Part shown: positions 15,994-29,713 of the stretch, in pieces
Layout of the letters: every line of letters begins with the position of its first letter
Position numbering within the stretch: the stretch's first letter is position 1
Source of the DNA: Clostridia bacterium
Lineage (GTDB): Bacteria; Bacillota; Clostridia; Christensenellales; Aristaeellaceae
DNA length: 29,713 bases
Direction of reading: 5' to 3'
Assembly (NCBI GenBank): GCA_045617125.1
Contig: JAZLIA010000109.1
Span: 1-29,713 of the forward strand
Program-made: the position numbers and the translations under genes
Notes under the pieces: model-generated
Databases searched by the model: none
What the model saw: the letters and a program-made list of their open reading frames with translations, nothing else
Told to the model about the DNA's origin: nothing

Positions 15994-16320
15994 ATGAAAG
16001 AAAAGACGGTCAAAGCATTAAAACTGGATGACAGCTTGCTTGATATGGTTCATGGAGGAAATGGTGATGCGATGCTTGATATGAATTGCATCCTCGAAGG
16101 GGGCAAAGATGCGATGCCTGACATGAATAGCAACCTCGCATCGGTTTCCTCGGTGCCATCCGTGATATTATTATATCAGACACATGAGGGGGATTGCTTC
16201 TCTGTTCTGGCGGAAAAATACAATACGTCAGTGGCGATGATTCTAAGCTTGAACCATATTGCAGATCCAGACCATGTTGAATCCGGTAGATGGATCCGGA
16301 TCCCGTGTAATCAAAAATAA
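15994..16320 (+). CDS. small LysM-domain protein with a double-glycine-type N-terminal leader
   Basis: The ATG at 15994 is preceded by GGAGG and a 7-nt spacer. The N-terminus MKEKTVKALKLDDSLLDMVHGG has no hydrophobic Sec core. The C-terminal segment YQTHEGDCFSVLAEKYNTSVAMILSLNHIADPDHVESGRWIRIP fits the LysM consensus (Y.V..GD.L..IA.KY..S...L...N.......I..GQ.L.IP). Confidence 0.75.
   Translation: MKEKTVKALKLDDSLLDMVHGGNGDAMLDMNCILEGGKDAMPDMNSNLASVSSVPSVILLYQTHEGDCFSVLAEKYNTSVAMILSLNHIADPDHVESGRWIRIPCNQK
16066..16138 (+). repeat. imperfect 42-nt in-frame tandem duplication inside the LysM gene
   Basis: gatgcgatgcttgatatgaattgcatcctcg (16066-16096) versus gatgcgatgcctgacatgaatagcaacctcg (16108-16138) match at 27/31 positions. 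A third partial copy, cttgatatg, lies at 16039-16047. Confidence 0.85.
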
Positions 16321-24954: not shown

Positions 24955-25196
24955 CGGATAAAAAACACCCCGTGCCTGTGCACGGGGCGTGAATACGCGG
25001 TACCACCCGGGTTCGCCGGTGCCTGATCGGCAGCGGCCTTGGGCCCCTTAACGCGGGGAAGACGGCAGCGGCTGAATGATTTCACCGTGCGGCTCCGGAG
25101 TGAATTTCCCGCTGCTTTCCGGAACGGCTTTCAGCCGGTGACCGTTCCTCTCTTTTGAAAGCACCAACCCGGGTTTTGCTCTCCTTCAGCGCCTTT
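24955..25196 (-). promoter_or_regulatory. T-box riboswitch leader, Phe-specific
   Basis: The minus strand carries the T-box sequence AACCCGGGTGGTACCGCGT (24995-25013). The UGGU bulge would pair with an ACCA acceptor end. The specifier-loop context is GGGAAAUUCACUCC, with the UUC (Phe) codon at 25102-25104 followed by A. GGAGAG/AGAGAGG purine-rich elements lie at the base of stem I, and a terminator hairpin follows. Confidence 0.88.
24959..24987 (-). terminator. T-box attenuator terminator
   Basis: Minus strand: CCCCGTGC, a 4-nt loop, GCACGGGG, then TGTTTTTTAT. The 5' arm overlaps the region that could alternatively pair with the T-box antiterminator. Confidence 0.85.
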
Positions 25197-25203
25197 CCGG
25201 GGG

Positions 25204-25278: not shown

Positions 25279-27447
25279 TCAACGGCTGTTTTGTTCGCTT
25301 TCCTGTGACTTGACGAGCTGTTCAAACAGACCATGCTGGTTCATTAATTGGCTGTAGGTTCCTTCTTCTACGATCCCGCCGTTTTCCATCACGATGATCC
25401 GATCACAATCTTTGATGGTAGATAGACGATGCGCGACCATGATGACGGTCGCTTTGGTCTTGCAAATCTCCTCCATCACCGCCGATTGGGTGTTGTTATC
25501 CAGAGCGGATGTCGCCTCATCCAGAATCAGCAGCGCAGGTTTTCGGACAAACGCTCTTGCCAGCAGCATACACTGCTTCTGACCGCCGGAAAACCCGCCG
25601 GACATCGTTTCGGATATGATGGAATCAAGCCCGTCCGGAAGCGCGGAGATCACATCGGCGATCTGTGCCTTTTTCAGTGCTTCCCAAACCTCTTCATCGG
25701 AGATGTCATCATTCCCTAAGGTGATGTTGTAACGTACAGAGCCCGGCATCAGCGAGCTGTACTGTGCCAGAAAGCCAATGCGCCTGTTCACGAAACGCAT
25801 ATTCAGGGTCTCGATCGGATGATCGTCGAGATATACCGTACCTGAAAGCGGCTTGTTGATCCCGACGATCATGCTCAGCAACGTACTTTTGCCGCAGCCG
25901 CTCCTGCCTGTGATCCCGATGATTTCGCCGGGCGTGGCCGAGAAATTGATGCCTTCGATGCTGAACGAATCAGAAGGATTGTAGGAAAAATTGATATTTT
26001 CAAGTTTGACGCTGCCACGAATATTTCTGAGGATCTTCTGATCCGGGCTGATCTCGCTTTCCGCCTGGAACAGCTTCGAGATGTGCCGGACATATTCCGA
26101 TGCTCTGAAAGACGCGGAAAACAAATCGGTGGCTTCCAGTGCCGCGGCGGACATGATGGCATAGCTCGCGCTGAACGCGATGAAACCAGCCGCGGAAACA
26201 TGGCAGTACCAGGCTGTGATATAGAAGACCGCGACCGAAATGGCCGGCACAAAGATGCCTTTCAACTTGACGATGAGCGGAAGGTCAAAAGAATATTCAA
26301 GCCGTCTTTTGAAGATCGAAGCCCATTTGACATAGATCCGCTTTTCCGCGCCAGCGGTCTTGATCTTCTGGATGCCCTGCAAAGTGGAGAAAATGTTGTT
26401 GCGAAGCTCGGAATCCGTTTCCATTTCCATTTTCAGGATCTTCGCGTAAATTCTCTCCGATATTCCGATCCAGGACAGCTGAAGCGCCATCAACAGAAGC
26501 CCTGCCAGTGCCAGAGGACCGGACATGTGGATCATCTGCGGAATATTGACCAGTGAAAAAGCCAGGGTGACCGATGTGCAGAAAACCATTTCCACAATGA
26601 TCTCGGCAAGCGTTCTGGCGTGACGGACATAGGTGGCGACACGTCCGCTCTTGTTCTTCCGGAAAAAGGAGACCGGAAGGCACAACACTCTCGCGATCAC
26701 CGAGATCTGGGACTGTTTCGTGATCCTGAGCCTGTACAGATCCACCGTGTATTTTTTGACAGCGTTCAGGAAGCAGCGGATCAGCCCGGCAGCCGTATAG
26801 ATAAAGATCGCGGAAACGATCAGCGGGATCGCGGTGCTGCCGGCCGGAACATATTCCTTCAGAACGGTATGGCTGACAGAGGGCGTTGCCAGGTTCAGCC
26901 CCGCCACCAGCGCAGACAGAATACAGATCACAGCCCAGAATTTGCGCGGAATGATCTTCAGAATATATCTCAGAAAACCCGGAAAACCGTCGACTTTCCA
27001 GTCCAAAGGCCGATAGACCGCGTAACCGGCAGCGCCGAGCCTGACTTTGCCTGTCAGATGGCTTTTTTTGTTTTGCCCGGGGCGCAGAAAGCTGTGACCG
27101 ATTACCGCGTTTGTGATCAGGATCGGAGAACCGTTGTCCAGAAAGCCGATGATGAAATCGGTGCTGTCTTTCCATCCGGGATCCGTCATATCGATCTTTT
27201 CATACAGGATCCCGCAGGGTTCAAAGGTATATTCCAGCATTTCATCCGGATCATCCGTATCATATTCGTTGCCGGGAGTCAATCCATAGGCGTTCAGAAT
27301 ATACCGGAGGATATACCGAAGTCCTTCCGTCCTGTCACAGGCTTCCTGATCGGGAGACAGTGTGCCGAACAGGGCGGCATCGGCTTTCTGTACTGCTTCT
27401 TCGTCCTGGGCGGCCCGCCTTTTGATCGTTTCTGTATAAAGTCCCAT
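25279..27447 (-). CDS. ABC exporter (TMD-NBD half transporter) with a ~160-aa N-terminal accessory domain
   Basis: A six-TM exporter domain is followed by Walker A GRSGCGKST, signature FSGGQKQ, Walker B LILDEATSALD and H-loop VAHRLST. The N-terminal domain has no Cys/His peptidase motifs. The start lies 3 nt after the upstream stop and has a GGGAG SD. Confidence 0.88.
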   Translation of the reverse strand: MGLYTETIKRRAAQDEEAVQKADAALFGTLSPDQEACDRTEGLRYILRYILNAYGLTPGNEYDTDDPDEMLEYTFEPCGILYEKIDMTDPGWKDSTDFIIGFLDNGSPILITNAVIGHSFLRPGQNKKSHLTGKVRLGAAGYAVYRPLDWKVDGFPGFLRYILKIIPRKFWAVICILSALVAGLNLATPSVSHTVLKEYVPAGSTAIPLIVSAIFIYTAAGLIRCFLNAVKKYTVDLYRLRITKQSQISVIARVLCLPVSFFRKNKSGRVATYVRHARTLAEIIVEMVFCTSVTLAFSLVNIPQMIHMSGPLALAGLLLMALQLSWIGISERIYAKILKMEMETDSELRNNIFSTLQGIQKIKTAGAEKRIYVKWASIFKRRLEYSFDLPLIVKLKGIFVPAISVAVFYITAWYCHVSAAGFIAFSASYAIMSAAALEATDLFSASFRASEYVRHISKLFQAESEISPDQKILRNIRGSVKLENINFSYNPSDSFSIEGINFSATPGEIIGITGRSGCGKSTLLSMIVGINKPLSGTVYLDDHPIETLNMRFVNRRIGFLAQYSSLMPGSVRYNITLGNDDISDEEVWEALKKAQIADVISALPDGLDSIISETMSGGFSGGQKQCMLLARAFVRKPALLILDEATSALDNNTQSAVMEEICKTKATVIMVAHRLSTIKDCDRIIVMENGGIVEEGTYSQLMNQHGLFEQLVKSQESEQNSR

Positions 27448-27450
27448 TTT

Positions 27451-29583
27451 TCAACTCCCACTGTCCACCAGCTGTCTGAATATACCGTCTCTGTTGTAGA
27501 GCTCCGACGGCGGTCCTTCCTCGGCGATTCTGCCTTTTTCAATAACCAGAACTTTGTCGCACAGCATCACAGTGGAAAGCCTGTGCGCGGCCAGGACGCA
27601 GACGCCCGCGTTCCGGTTCCGGATGGCCTCAAAGACTTTTTTCTCCGTAATGACGTCCAGTGCGGATGTGAATTCATCCAGGATCAGGATGGTCGGTTCC
27701 GCGGAAAGCGCTCTCGCCAGCGCCAGCCGCTGCAGTTCTCCGCCGGAGAAATTGCAGCCGTGCTCCTGGATCATGCCGTCATATCCATCCGGAGATGAGA
27801 TGATCCTCGGATGGATCTGCGCGTCTCTCGCGGCCAGGATCATTTCATAGTCTTCAATACAGTCATCCCACAGCTTCAGGTTGTTCCGCACCGTATCAAA
27901 ATAGGTCATGACATCCTGATCCACCGTGGCGATTGAAGCGTGCAAAACCGCGGTGGGGATCTCTCCGATCGGTTTTCCGTCGATCAAGATACTGCCGGAT
28001 TCCTGCGTATACAGGTCTGACAGCAGTTTCAGGATCGTGCTTTTGCCTGATCCCGTTTTTCCGACAAGAGCAACGATCTCGCCCTTTCTGACAGTGAAGG
28101 AAACATCCTTGAGCGCGGGTTCGTCGCCCTTGTTATAGCGGAATGTGACATGGTCAAACACAATATCTCCGGAAAGCTTGTCCGGTTCTTCCGGAATCGC
28201 GACCTCTCCGCGGGATTCACGCTGCAGGATATCATCCGAACGGTCGATGTTTGCTTTGATTCTCTGATAGTCTTTCATCATAAGAAGGGACTTGCGGACG
28301 TTTTTTTGCAGCTGGTTGACCAGGGTCTGGAACACCGCCATCACGCCGAAGGAGAAGCTACCGTTGATCATCATAAAAGCGCCGATGAACAGAAGGGCTC
28401 CCTGCGCGAAAAAATCGCTGAGATCGTTCAGCAGCGAAGCCAGCGCATTCAGCTTCAGCAAACTTTTCTGTTTATTGTCATAGTCGGTTTCCGACCGGCA
28501 CCAGACCTTGAAAAAGCTTCTTTCCGCACCGGTCGTTTTAATGGTTTCGATCAGGTTGATCCCGTTCAGCGTGTTGGATGTCACGTTGCTCTGCAGGACA
28601 GAAAGGCTTCGGGAAACGACCCCGACCCGGGAGACAACGGCCATATACAGGACAACGGAAATGATCTCCACGGCCAGACAGATGGCTGCCATGACCGGAT
28701 CAAACAGAAACAGAACAAGCAGGAAAGCAAAGATCAGGATCAGGTCAATAAGCTTCGATATAATATCACTGAGAAATCTTTTACCCAGCGTGATATTATC
28801 CATCGTCCGGTCGATCAGATCTCCGTTAATATGTGTTTCAAAAAAATGCATGGGCAGGCTGAGGAGCTTTTTGTACAGCGCGCTGCTCGACCGCGCCGCG
28901 ATTTTCCGGCTGCTCCCGAAAACGATCAGCGGCGTGATGACGGCAGCCGCGATATCCAGGACCGCGATGCACGCGATCACAGCCATGAGAAAGGGTGCCC
29001 GGGCGGCGTTGCCTTCGGACAGGCACTCATCCATCATTGCCCTGGAAGCAAAAAGCATACCGACGGTTGCTCCCGCGGAAAGGAGATAAAGCAACAGAAG
29101 AACAATGCAGTCTTTTTTATTTTCCCTGAAGCGACGGATAACAGGCGCGAAAAAACTTTCCGGCTTTCCCTCCGGCGCAAAGCCTTCCGCGGGAGTAAAT
29201 ACGATCGCCGTACTTCCCTCAAGTTTCTTTTCAAACGCTTCCCCGGTGATGTTGTATCTGCCGTAGCTCGAGCTGTTCAGACAGATCTTCCCGTTTTTGT
29301 ATCCGGTAACGATTTCATAATATCGTCCGGAACGGATCACGACCGGTGTATTCTGAGCCCGGATGATGTCGGGCGCCGGATTCCGGATAACCTCCGCCGA
29401 AAGCCCGAAAGCCGCACCGGCCGCGATCATCTGTCTGACCGATGTATTGTTGCGTGACGCAAGGCATTCCTGGCGGATCATTTCCGCCGATGGATACTTT
29501 TTATACCATGCCAGGATCATCGCGAGGGTCGCCATGCCGTTCTCCCCGGTATGAAGCTGCATGATCAACGGTACTTTATACAT
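27451..29583 (-). CDS. ABC exporter with N-terminal C39 peptidase-like domain whose catalytic residues are substituted
   Basis: The N-terminus YKVPLIMQLHTGENGMATLAMILAWY aligns by eye with the C39 block Q.....ECG..CLAMIL, with Asn in place of the catalytic Cys. A 6-TM domain follows, then Walker A GKTGSGKST, signature FSGGELQ, Walker B LILDEFTSALD and H-loop AAHRLST. I set the start at the ATG at 29583, which overlaps the upstream gene's stop (ATGTATAA). Confidence 0.85.
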   Translation of the reverse strand: MYKVPLIMQLHTGENGMATLAMILAWYKKYPSAEMIRQECLASRNNTSVRQMIAAGAAFGLSAEVIRNPAPDIIRAQNTPVVIRSGRYYEIVTGYKNGKICLNSSSYGRYNITGEAFEKKLEGSTAIVFTPAEGFAPEGKPESFFAPVIRRFRENKKDCIVLLLLYLLSAGATVGMLFASRAMMDECLSEGNAARAPFLMAVIACIAVLDIAAAVITPLIVFGSSRKIAARSSSALYKKLLSLPMHFFETHINGDLIDRTMDNITLGKRFLSDIISKLIDLILIFAFLLVLFLFDPVMAAICLAVEIISVVLYMAVVSRVGVVSRSLSVLQSNVTSNTLNGINLIETIKTTGAERSFFKVWCRSETDYDNKQKSLLKLNALASLLNDLSDFFAQGALLFIGAFMMINGSFSFGVMAVFQTLVNQLQKNVRKSLLMMKDYQRIKANIDRSDDILQRESRGEVAIPEEPDKLSGDIVFDHVTFRYNKGDEPALKDVSFTVRKGEIVALVGKTGSGKSTILKLLSDLYTQESGSILIDGKPIGEIPTAVLHASIATVDQDVMTYFDTVRNNLKLWDDCIEDYEMILAARDAQIHPRIISSPDGYDGMIQEHGCNFSGGELQRLALARALSAEPTILILDEFTSALDVITEKKVFEAIRNRNAGVCVLAAHRLSTVMLCDKVLVIEKGRIAEEGPPSELYNRDGIFRQLVDSGS

Positions 29584-29713
29584 TTTTATACATATTGTGG
29601 TACAGATGAACAAGGCTGACATAGCCAAGCGATTTCAGTTCGCTGTAGGAAGCCCTGTACTGTGCCTTTCCCCATTTCTCTGTCAGCACATAACGCGCGC
29701 AGTGCTGGATCCA
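29576..29713 (-). CDS. 3' end of an unidentified gene, translationally coupled to the ABC exporter; 5' part lies outside the window
   Basis: The minus-strand frame is open from the window edge: WIQHCARYVLTEKWGKAQYRASYSELKSLGYVSLVHLYHNMYKNV, with the stop at 29576-29578. It overlaps the next start codon by 8 nt. I recognise no family. Confidence 0.45.
   Translation of the reverse strand, partial: WIQHCARYVLTEKWGKAQYRASYSELKSLGYVSLVHLYHNMYKNV

Follow-up and report, generated by a model that had tools for sequence, protein, structure and literature searches.

Exporter-type ABC transporter pair with a catalytically dead C39-like domain next to a UG26-class reverse transcriptase gene in a Clostridia bacterium

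The window, i.e., the whole analyzed stretch of 29,713 nucleotides, carries at its right end two adjacent genes of exporter-type ABC half-transporters on the minus strand, ABC1 (710 aa, beginning with MYKVPL) and ABC2 (722 aa). The stop codon of ABC1 (27451-27453) and the ATG of ABC2 (27445-27447) are 3 nt apart, and these ORF coordinates bear out the coupled pair proposed in the initial annotation. Upstream of ABC1 the window contains merely the final 138 nt of a reverse transcriptase (RT) gene and none of the noncoding RNA (ncRNA) considered below; the full cassette was inferred from relatives, the ABC1 and ABC2 proteins of which are 84-88% identical to those of the window. The features are as follows:

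29576..29713, minus strand: 3' end of the RT gene, the last 45 codons and stop of a UG26-class RT gene, cut by the contig end
27451..29583, minus strand: ABC1, half-transporter; C39-like domain followed by an exporter transmembrane domain of six helices and the ATPase domain (Pfam, NCBIfam)
29179..29583, minus strand: catalytically dead C39-like domain, ABC1 residues 1-135 (LahT150 alignment, catalytic columns, AlphaFold2, dN/dS)
29557-29559, minus strand: Gln9 of ABC1, the oxyanion Gln, kept
29539-29541, minus strand: Asn15 of ABC1, Cys column (codon AAC, read directly)
29320-29322, minus strand: Tyr88 of ABC1, His column
29272-29274, minus strand: Ser104 of ABC1, Asp column
27466..28113, minus strand: ABC1 ATPase domain (motif scan on the translation)
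28039-28062 and 27736-27750, minus strand: ABC1 Walker A and signature FSGGE (motif scan)
27673-27690 and 27580-27588, minus strand: ABC1 Walker B with the catalytic Glu, and H-loop (motif scan)
25279..27447, minus strand: ABC2, half-transporter; N-terminal domain of ~165 aa followed by exporter transmembrane and ATPase domains (Pfam, NCBIfam)
26953..27447, minus strand: ABC2 N-terminal domain, residues 1-165, conserved among RT-linked ABC2 homologues (alignment)
25303..25956, minus strand: ABC2 ATPase domain (motif scan on the translation)
25885-25908 and 25579-25593, minus strand: ABC2 Walker A and signature FSGGQ (motif scan)
25516-25533 and 25426-25434, minus strand: ABC2 Walker B with Glu, and H-loop (motif scan)

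Pfam analysis recognized Peptidase_C39, ABC_membrane and ABC_tran domains in ABC1, the first of them over residues 4-131 with 50.4 bits against a gathering score of 22, which confirms the C39-like nature of the first ~140 aa. Residues 3-135 aligned with the double-glycine protease LahT150 (6mpz; phmmer against PDB, E 3e-15, 30% identity), and in this alignment Gln9 is kept, and Asn15, Tyr88 and Ser104 occupy the Cys, His and Asp columns, respectively. The initial annotation had proposed that all three catalytic positions are substituted, with Asn at the nucleophile position and Gln retained; both proposals are upheld by the AAC codon and the LahT150 alignment. Its RYYEIV motif does mark the substituted His site, at which it named no residue; the one aligned with His is the first Tyr. 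The M1 start is supported by the motif MY(K/R)VPL(I/V)MQ, found in frame in all homologues, and none of the alternative start codons restores a Cys/His pair.

The dead C39 domain is still folded and under purifying selection: the AlphaFold2 model of ABC1 residues 1-142 has a mean pLDDT of 93.5 and superimposes on LahT150 (6mpz) with a TM score of 0.85 and an rmsd of 1.6 A, and the dN/dS of the domain (0.13-0.31) is near that of the transmembrane domain. With other structures the model gave TM scores of 0.81-0.87 (PCAT1), 0.77-0.80 (ComA) and 0.73 (HlyB C39-like domain). Residues Q9, E14, G16, L20, M22, L24 and Y27 are invariant in active and dead domains alike. The nearest outgroup of the domain (33% identity) has Cys, His and Asp intact, and in both sequence and predicted structure the domain is closer to the active PCAT/LahT peptidases than to HlyB. 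Since its nearest relatives are active peptidases, its inactivation looks, judging by sequence and modeled structure, like an event independent of HlyB; the HlyB precedent invoked in the initial annotation holds as an analogy, not as kinship. The loss of catalytic residues is a clade trait of RT-linked ABC1 proteins, the distant members of which have Asn at the Cys column (Ser in one), Tyr at the His column and a retained Asp. In an exhaustive search with the ABC1 N-terminal domain, the Cys column was occupied by Asn or Ser in 34 of the best 150 cluster representatives (clusters at 50% identity); the full-length ones were ~37-57% identical to RT-linked ABC1, and some fragments up to 79%.

According to the motif scan, both ATPase domains have canonical motifs (GKTGSGKS, DQD, FSGGE, ILILDE, SALD and AHR in ABC1; GRSGCGKS, AQY, FSGGQ, LLILDE, SALD and AHR in ABC2), in agreement with the earlier impression that both are competent. 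The Pfam domains of ABC2 are ABC_membrane and ABC_tran. Its N-terminal domain (residues 1-165) has neither a Pfam match nor a PDB sequence match, and its similarity to C39 is undetectable (hhalign probability of 1.4% against a C39 alignment); the AlphaFold2 model of this domain was unusable (pLDDT 41.6). Among RT-linked ABC2 homologues the domain is conserved and starts with MGLYT..I..R.

The best NCBIfam matches of ABC1 and ABC2 are TIGR03796 (540 bits against a cut-off of 853) and TIGR03797 (433 bits against 709, residues 64-715, i.e., including part of the ABC2 N-terminal domain). The resemblance to the NHLM/NHLP pair suspected previously is thus real as far as the best family matches go, but membership in the NHLP system is not supported, given these sub-cut-off scores and the absence of an HlyD-type partner and an NHLP/Nif11 precursor from every related locus examined. 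These family matches, together with a C39 fold which is kept under purifying selection and is closest to leader-binding peptidases, would suit a stand-alone NHLP-type RiPP/bacteriocin exporter that recognizes a leader without cutting it and is directly preceded by its precursor and maturation genes. We consider this explanation very improbable: the ABC pair of the distant locus L011 likewise scores far under both equivalog cut-offs, and no radical-SAM, cyclodehydratase, NHLP/Nif11 or HlyD gene occupies a conserved position in any locus examined. For the sequence beyond the right edge it is already contradicted, as the gene immediately upstream is that of the RT.

Cargo and maturation genes had been expected just past the right edge; instead, the window ends inside a UG26 RT gene. 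The translation of the window tail, WIQHCARYVLTEKWGKAQYRASY...LVHLYHNMYKNV followed by the stop, matches the C-terminus of the full-length RTs in the related contigs L002, L003, L004 and L005 and is 93% identical to RT residues 361-405 (tblastn). The RT stop codon (TAA, 29576-29578) overlaps the ABC1 ATG (29581-29583) within ATGTATAA; the distance from the RT end to the start of ABC1 called by the gene caller is 13 nt in L002, L003, L004, L005 and L009. The RT of L005 matched the PADLOC model RT_UG26 over its full length (E 8e-84), and its best match is not a retron RT. The ABC-linked RTs constitute a divergent branch of UG26, as they score 280-343 bits versus 532 for a Vsr-linked RT. UG26 was described as a group of class 2 UG/Abi RTs with 35 members, nine of them with a Vsr-like protein, and its association with defence was left inconclusive (Mestre et al., 2022, PMC9226505).

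The unit found in the related contigs is a structured ncRNA followed by RT, ABC1 and ABC2. In two further-reaching contigs, just the ncRNA and its promoter precede the RT, and unrelated host genes lie beyond. Homology between cassettes extends from the -35 box of the ncRNA promoter to the ABC2 stop codon, the flanks being unrelated host genes, as in L005 and L009, which also speaks against a stand-alone exporter with upstream maturation genes. Cassettes with 84-88% protein identity occur in at least three downstream neighborhoods (pheST; MatE; EamA/GH38) and two upstream ones (SH3 genes; EF-G/Tex), which suggests, as far as sequence comparison goes, that the cassette is mobile. The pair as a free-standing bacteriocin exporter was rejected in favor of a conserved part of an RT-ncRNA cassette.

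In a survey of 80 metagenomic loci with UG26-like RTs, the seven RTs of highest similarity (31-33% identity) included six that adjoin homologues of ABC1 (36-38%) and/or ABC2 (32-33%), with the genes being co-linear in L011, L015 and L016, divergent in L014, and separated by another gene in L010 and L012. UG26 is the best match of these distant ABC-linked RTs, too (E 4e-103 and 2e-101), and they share one deep side of the neighbor-joining tree with the window-type RTs. RT, ABC1 and ABC2 are co-inherited over deep divergence and through rearrangements. The linkage is not absolute: L006, whose ABC1 is 66% identical, lacks an RT within 2 kb upstream of its ABC pair, and L013 has the RT and ncRNA with no ABC pair on its 5.4-kb contig. 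The UG26 branches differ in their partner genes: a ~177-aa protein matching PADLOC RTasCOG2852, the Vsr-like nuclease published as the UG26 partner (PMC9226505), is encoded in 44 of the RT loci; L007 and L008 of a sister branch encode a 962-aa NRPS-like A-T protein, in which adenylation and carrier domains are accompanied by a C-terminal part with no domain assignment; and the branch considered here has the ABC pair. No defence genes were found around the cassettes.

The ncRNA (~230 nt in the two further-reaching contigs) has its own promoter and a terminator hairpin, covaries and always abuts the RT gene. The conserved element adjoins the RT in eight loci: it precedes the RT on the same strand in L005 and L009, follows it in convergent orientation in L007 and L008, and lies upstream in divergent orientation in L010, L011, L013 and L014. 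In the alignment of these loci 95.5% of cells are paired, versus 37-46% in shifted-partner controls, with compensatory changes at 29 of 43 pairs; Rfam yielded no match.

Taken together, these results lead us to favor, with moderate confidence, the explanation that ABC1 and ABC2 form a heterodimeric PCAT/NHLP-type exporter with a non-catalytic docking C39 domain, constituting the conserved downstream half of an RT cassette. The order of the latter would be promoter, ~200-nt structured ncRNA with terminator hairpin, UG26-class RT, ABC1 and ABC2. Partners of the RT-ncRNA core would be interchangeable, as retron/DRT effectors are, and the ABC pair is therefore taken, by the logic of gene neighborhood alone, as the putative membrane/export or output arm of the RT-ncRNA system. 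The dead C39 domain would bind, but not cut, a peptide segment, which could be a leader of the double-glycine type or belong to the RT complex, and the binding would be coupled to ATP-driven membrane transport. As to the setting, defence against phages or other mobile elements would be the most likely one, but is still putative.

Double-glycine (GG)-leader ORFs near several loci are equally consistent with ordinary peptide export. In the window, L003, L005, L006 and L011, the last with two copies, they are no more than ~9 kb away from the ABC genes. Candidate cargo for a non-cleaving exporter of peptides or proteins encoded elsewhere would be the GG-leader/LysM ORF at window positions 15994-16320 and, in L003 and L005, the Cys-rich GG peptides; the RT-ncRNA would then travel with the exporter as a neighbor that has no relation to it, or no more than a regulatory one. 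The residues invariant in active and dead domains fit such a function, as does L006, with its ABC pair and GG peptide but no RT. Nevertheless, the GG ORFs lie outside the cassette boundaries with no fixed position or orientation, and one is present even in L007, which lacks the ABC pair, so that they may represent a background of these genomes. Judged by gene content, the control loci with the RT only belong largely to other taxa, which precludes any claim of enrichment. A chance neighbor would also account neither for RT and ABC genes that stay linked, in several gene orders, at 33% RT identity nor for the overlap of the stop and start codons, and we regard this explanation as rather unlikely.

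That overlap, translationally coupling RT and ABC1, and the conservation of the ncRNA with the RT would also agree with the RT product itself being the cargo, i.e., the dead C39 domain docking an RT-cDNA complex or a cDNA-specified polypeptide (as in DRT2/Neo) for export; a substrate-docking domain is kept, yet the cassette holds no dedicated cargo gene. One ncRNA reading frame, not necessarily the same one in each of the eight loci, is stop-free in five of the eight homologues, a weak argument, as it is interrupted in L008 and has no conserved start. The covariation pattern favors RNA structure over coding, and the nuclease partner of other UG26 branches fits an intracellular effector model better; we find this variant improbable.

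The favored reading makes an ABC exporter pair with a dead peptidase the conserved partner of a little-studied bacterial RT and its structured RNA. We know of no RT system that uses an ABC exporter, and in the literature searched we found neither an earlier description of the RT, ncRNA and ABC pair combination nor an ABC exporter as a retron or DRT effector.

Among known systems, UG26 is represented here by RTs matching its model over the full length, and the published COG2852/Vsr-like partner also prevails in the loci collected; the ABC pair and the ncRNA are both missing from the published description (PMC9226505). The NHLP/NHLM pair (TIGR03796 and TIGR03797) likewise consists of adjacent half-transporters in the same order, the first with an N-terminal C39 domain and the second with a different N-terminal domain, but the window pair has lost the catalytic triad, has no HlyD-type subunit or NHLP/Nif11 precursor and is linked to a reverse transcriptase. 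In HlyB, which needs a membrane-fusion protein and TolC, Tyr replaces Cys and His is kept. Its degenerate C39-like domain (PDB 3zua, 7sgr), kept as a substrate-binding module, is a precedent for binding without cutting, but it is more distant from that of ABC1 (12-13% identity at the TM score of 0.73), and ABC1 scores 342 bits against the TIGR01846 cut-off of 725. Among solved structures, PCAT1 of Clostridium thermocellum and LahT150 (PDB 4ry2, 6v9z, 6mpz) come closest to the ABC1 N-terminal domain; PCAT1 has the same overall domain order as ABC1, but it is a homodimer whose active Cys/His peptidase removes the leader, whereas the window transporter is a predicted heterodimer with Asn, Tyr and Ser at the catalytic columns. 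Finally, the window-type system differs from retrons and ncRNA-dependent DRT (DRT2/UG2, DRT9/UG28) in an RT that is not of retron type by best match and an ncRNA outside Rfam, but all of them have an RT with an adjacent structured ncRNA as the core, which retrons combine with interchangeable effector genes.

Two adjacent exporter-type half-transporters are encoded on the minus strand, their ORFs being separated by 3 nt:

27451-29583, minus strand: ABC1, an ORF of 710 aa starting with MYKVPL
25279-27447, minus strand: ABC2, an ORF of 722 aa

Pfam domains of ABC1 comprise Peptidase_C39 (50.4 bits at a gathering score of 22), ABC_membrane and ABC_tran, and those of ABC2 comprise ABC_membrane and ABC_tran. 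Canonical Walker A, Q-loop, Walker B with its Glu, D-loop and H-loop were found in both ATPase domains, which carry one signature motif each (FSGGE and FSGGQ), and the initial annotation was confirmed in every detail. The N-terminal domain of ABC2 matched no Pfam family and no PDB sequence, and its interpretation as a second degenerate C39 domain received no support (hhalign probability 1.4%); a word-indexed search with this domain retrieved two proteins only, and its AF2 model, built from three sequences, was unusable (pLDDT 41.6). Scanning of the GTDB species genomes with ABC1 revealed no close relative, and exact look-ups of ABC1 (from two start codons) and of ABC2 retrieved no recorded contig.

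The N-terminal part of ABC1 does score as C39, as was presumed from the sequence, both in Pfam and in a phmmer search of solved structures, where LahT150 (6mpz) paired with residues 3-135 (E 3e-15). In this alignment the oxyanion Gln9 is kept, while the nucleophilic Cys is replaced by Asn15 (codon AAC, 29539-29541), His by Tyr88 and Asp by Ser104, in agreement with the proposed loss of all three catalytic residues. The AlphaFold2 model of residues 1-142 (pLDDT 93.5) superimposed well on LahT150 (TM 0.85, rmsd 1.6 A), PCAT1 (TM 0.81-0.87) and ComA (TM 0.77-0.80), and more weakly on the C39-like domain of HlyB (TM 0.73). The domain is hence a C39 member by its sequence and predicted papain-like fold, lacking the Cys, His and Asp residues. 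All ten protein clusters with 59-100% identity to ABC1 have Asn in the Cys column, the His column being filled by Tyr or Asp (Asp in the clusters P0009 and P0010) and the Asp column by Ser or His; in the next-nearest proteins (33% identity) the Cys/His/Asp residues are intact. Pairwise dN/dS values among five cassettes were 0.13-0.31 for the C39-like domain, close to those of the transmembrane domain (0.11-0.19), which argues that the domain is not decaying: it is dead, yet selected. With the C39-like domain as query, 872 matches were obtained from 1.84 billion cluster representatives in an exhaustive HMMER search. Reading of the four columns in the best 150 gave Q-C-H-D for 102 representatives and Asn or Ser in place of Cys for 34, with Q-N-Y-D as the prevailing pattern of the latter; the top dozen matches fall almost entirely into this second group. 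Cys-to-Asn and His-to-Tyr replacements form a clade-wide signature of a second, independent route to a non-catalytic C39 domain on an ABC exporter. The signature could be used for finding and annotating proteins of the ABC1 type, to which automatic annotation now gives the name 'peptidase domain-containing ABC transporter'.

The last 138 nt of the window belong to another open reading frame:

29576-29713, minus strand: 3' end of a reverse transcriptase (RT) gene, open frame with the C-terminus ...WIQHCARYVLTEKWGKAQYRASYSELKSLGYVSLVHLYHNMYKNV*

Its stop codon TAA overlaps the ABC1 ATG inside ATGTATAA, and RT and ABC1 are translationally coupled. As the window is the entire NCBI contig, the gene beyond its right edge was read from relatives. 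The same upstream gene was present in all contigs with ABC1 homologues of 84-86% identity, ending 13 nt before the ABC1 start set by the gene caller (L002, L003, L004, L005 and L009). Where complete (contigs L005 and L009), it encodes a 405-aa RT whose YTDD motif is intact; the last 45 codons, the only part of the RT gene in the window itself, specify a C-terminus sharing 93% identity with that of the L005 protein. The initial annotation had predicted precursor and maturation genes at this place; since the relatives carry the RT there, the prediction was not borne out. Full-length matches to the PADLOC model RT_UG26 were obtained with the RTs of L005 (E 8e-84), L007 (E 1e-82), L011 (E 4e-103) and L016 (E 2e-101). 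UG26 was the best family, followed by UG27 and UG17, and RT_I-B, the sole retron-type model listed, was far weaker; by best match, the RT is not one of the retron clade, which is paired with an msr/msd ncRNA that yields msDNA. The RT of the cassette is a divergent UG26 member. In four independent assemblies (the window, L002, L003 and L004) the right end falls within the RT gene, at a distance of 124-1046 nt upstream from the ABC1 start, which suggests that several RT variants or copies per sample confused the assemblers.

Homology between the cassettes extends from an ncRNA promoter to the stop codon of ABC2, i.e., over ~5.9 kb comprising the ncRNA, RT, ABC1 and ABC2 and no other gene. The downstream neighbours of cassettes whose proteins are 84-88% identical are of at least three kinds (pheST in the window and L002, MatE in L003, EamA/GH38 in L004), and the upstream ones of two (SH3 genes in L005, EF-G/Tex in L009). 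No close RT was detected by RT searches of plasmid and phage collections or by an RT-alignment scan of the IMG/VR viral contigs, so that there is no evident sign of its carriage by phages or plasmids; no defence genes were found around the cassettes. The pheS gene downstream of ABC2 in the window has its own leader features:

25233-25204, minus strand: promoter-like site
24980-25198, minus strand: T-box leader (RF00230, 77.3 bits, E 3e-17), missed by a default scan because the Rfam gathering score is 93
24990-24965, minus strand: terminator hairpin

The upstream flanks of L005 and L009 are unrelated up to a TTGACA / TGnTAnAnT promoter, which is followed by about 230 nt of highly conserved non-coding sequence with a terminator-like hairpin and a T-run at its 3' end, just before the RT start:

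L005 6172-6378: ncRNA
L009 9646-9845: ncRNA

The ncRNA was located at six further loci as well. In L007 and L008 it lies downstream of the RT in convergent orientation (nhmmer E 4e-13 and 2e-19); a covariance model built from L005, L009, L007 and L008 placed it directly upstream of the RT, divergently, in L010, L011, L013 and L014, and gave weak matches next to the RT, on its upstream side, in many more UG26 loci. The ncRNA of ~200 nt has six helices and invariant stretches, among which are, in the four closest loci, CATCTGCAG and TTGCAGATG. In the alignment of eight sequences 95.5% of the cells were paired, versus 37-46% in shifted-partner controls, and compensatory changes occurred in 29 of 43 pairs; a caveat is that this alignment was fitted to the model, and the first four-sequence MAFFT alignment already contained 11 compensatory pairs. 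No Rfam 15 family matched the ncRNA even at E <= 0.1, and a metagenome scan with its conserved pattern returned nothing. A small coding gene at this place was rejected, its frame being broken in L008, its start not conserved and the stem substitutions compensatory, as were DGR-like template/variable repeats, since BLAST of the ncRNA against all loci retrieved homologous ncRNAs and short chance matches only.

A metagenome scan with the RT alignment provided 80 loci out of 405 relatives. The seven RTs among them that most resemble the window type share 31-33% identity with it, and six of these adjoin homologues of ABC1 (36-38% identity) and/or ABC2 (32-33%); the seventh, in L013, is located on a short contig without the ABC pair. 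The order RT-ABC1-ABC2 is kept in L011, L016 and L015 (the last contig being cut), the RT and ABC genes are divergent in L014, and an extra gene separates them in L010 and L012. The distant RT-linked ABC1 proteins have GENG, SENG or SESG around the Cys column, Tyr at the His column and a retained Asp, and are 37-79% identical to the Asn/Ser-bearing representatives from the domain search. In a neighbour-joining tree one deep side held both the distant ABC-linked RTs and the window-type RTs, most of the family being placed elsewhere. The linkage between RT and ABC genes is old and reflects deep co-inheritance. A pair 62-66% identical to that of the window occurs without the RT upstream in L006:

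L006 1-2034: stretch upstream of the ABC1/ABC2 pair, with no RT
L006 1206-1388: ORF with a double-glycine (GG) leader, in the place of the RT, accompanied by apparent remnants of a decayed family-2 glycosyltransferase gene and by a small ORF of VapD-like appearance

Genes following the RT were noted in L010 and L012:

L010 4433-7081: Radical_SAM_N2 and Radical_SAM gene, its start overlapping the RT stop codon
L012 1219-2849: pair of adjoining ORFs at the corresponding site, of which the first resembles by eye the N-terminus of the L010 gene; the copy looks split

This Radical_SAM gene may be an accessory gene or mark a preferred insertion site.

Other partners accompany related RTs. A protein of ~177 aa matching PADLOC RTasCOG2852 (E 2e-7) was found by the RT in 44 metagenomic loci, and this COG2852/Vsr-like endonuclease is absent from the ABC-linked ones. 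A Vsr-like partner was previously reported for nine of 35 UG26 members, no ABC partner or ncRNA being mentioned for UG26 and its association with defence being judged inconclusive (Mestre et al., 2022; PMC9226505). Outside the cassette, the RTs with the highest similarity to the window type (56-57% identity) form a sister branch, that of L007 and L008, in which a 962-aa NRPS-like protein is encoded directly upstream of the RT; it contains adenylation and carrier domains, and its C-terminal part of ~440 aa is unassigned:

L007 7098-11451: NRPS-like protein, RT and downstream convergent ncRNA
L008 7055-11425: NRPS-like protein, RT and downstream convergent ncRNA

This protein is another undescribed partner of UG26. 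As the ABC pair, the Vsr-like protein and the NRPS-like protein each occur beside the RT, no fewer than three different partner modules are combined with a recurring RT-ncRNA core.

No precursor or maturation gene occupies a fixed position around the cassettes. Small ORFs with GG leaders were found in the surroundings:

Window 15994-16320, plus strand: GG-leader ORF of 108 aa, leader MKEKTVKALKLDDSLLDMVHGG, C-terminal part LysM-like
L003 9972-10154, minus strand: Cys-rich GG-leader peptide
L005 1993-2166, plus strand: Cys-rich GG-leader peptide, homologous to the previous one (53% identity)

The leader of the window ORF is a textbook double-glycine one, with hydrophobic residues at -4, -7 and -12; the ORF had no NCBIfam match at E <= 1e-5, and its product may serve as substrate for an exporter of the C39 type. 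The genes of the two Cys-rich peptides are 4-5 kb away from the cassette, on opposite sides of it and in otherwise unrelated neighbourhoods. Further GG-leader ORFs are present in L006 (one), L011 (two) and L007, the latter having no ABC pair. All of them are located beyond the cassette boundaries, their distance and orientation varying, and the small ones are short, class-II-like and not adjacent to the ABC pair; we consider them candidate substrates that do not belong to the system itself. Enrichment of such ORFs near the cassette was considered and dropped, as the RT-only controls belonged, by gene content, largely to other taxa and L007 was also positive.

Considering the whole set of loci, we slightly favour the view that the ABC pair acts as the output module of an RT-ncRNA system. 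In such a system the C39-like domain would bind a peptide segment without cleaving it, by analogy with Cys-mutant PCAT1 and the C39-like domain of HlyB, both of which bind peptide without cleavage, and the heterodimer with its two competent ATP sites would couple this binding to ATP-driven transport. Possible outcomes would be the export of a signal or toxin, the export of an RT product, or an abortive response at the membrane level; any specific cargo is assumed with less confidence than the output role itself. It is improbable that the cassette is a secretion device in which the UG26 RT copies the ncRNA, and the RT-linked cDNA or a cDNA-specified peptide is docked by the C39-like domain and exported by ABC1/ABC2; bacteria would then release RT-made DNA or a new peptide, e.g., as an alarm or interference signal. 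If the RT-ABC linkage is functional, it would offer a testable handle on UG26, an RT class currently without assigned function, in the form of three alternative partner modules and of a conserved ncRNA that is new for this class.

Among known exporters, PCAT/NHLP ones are the nearest relatives of ABC1/ABC2, and to that extent the likeness to an NHLP-type bacteriocin export pair noted in the initial annotation holds. Membership in that pair does not: subunit 1 reached 540.3 bits with TIGR03796 (cut-off 853.3; 603.9 for the L011 homologue) and subunit 2 reached 433.2 bits with TIGR03797 (cut-off 709.4; 463.8 for the L011 homologue), the catalytic residues are replaced, and no HlyD-family partner or NHLP/Nif11 precursor Pfam family was present among the called genes of L002-L009. 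ABC1 and ABC2 presumably work like a PCAT/NHLP exporter. With the HlyB-type model TIGR01846, ABC1 scored 342 bits at a cut-off of 725.55, and genes for HlyB-type membrane-fusion or outer-membrane partners were found in none of the loci; the likeness to HlyB is confined to the pseudo-peptidase, and ABC1 lost its catalytic residues independently. An origin from Firmicutes is suggested by the T-box-regulated pheS of the window and by the RT of L007, the source of which is given as 'Clostridia bacterium'. Our search of the searchable literature, the coverage of which is incomplete, found no description of an RT-ABC exporter, an RT-C39 association or a UG26 ncRNA. Known partners of RT-ncRNA systems, i.e., nucleases, NADases and small membrane proteins, act intracellularly; a functional linkage would extend their range by a dedicated ABC exporter whose pseudo-peptidase docks the substrate, a partner of a kind new to these systems.
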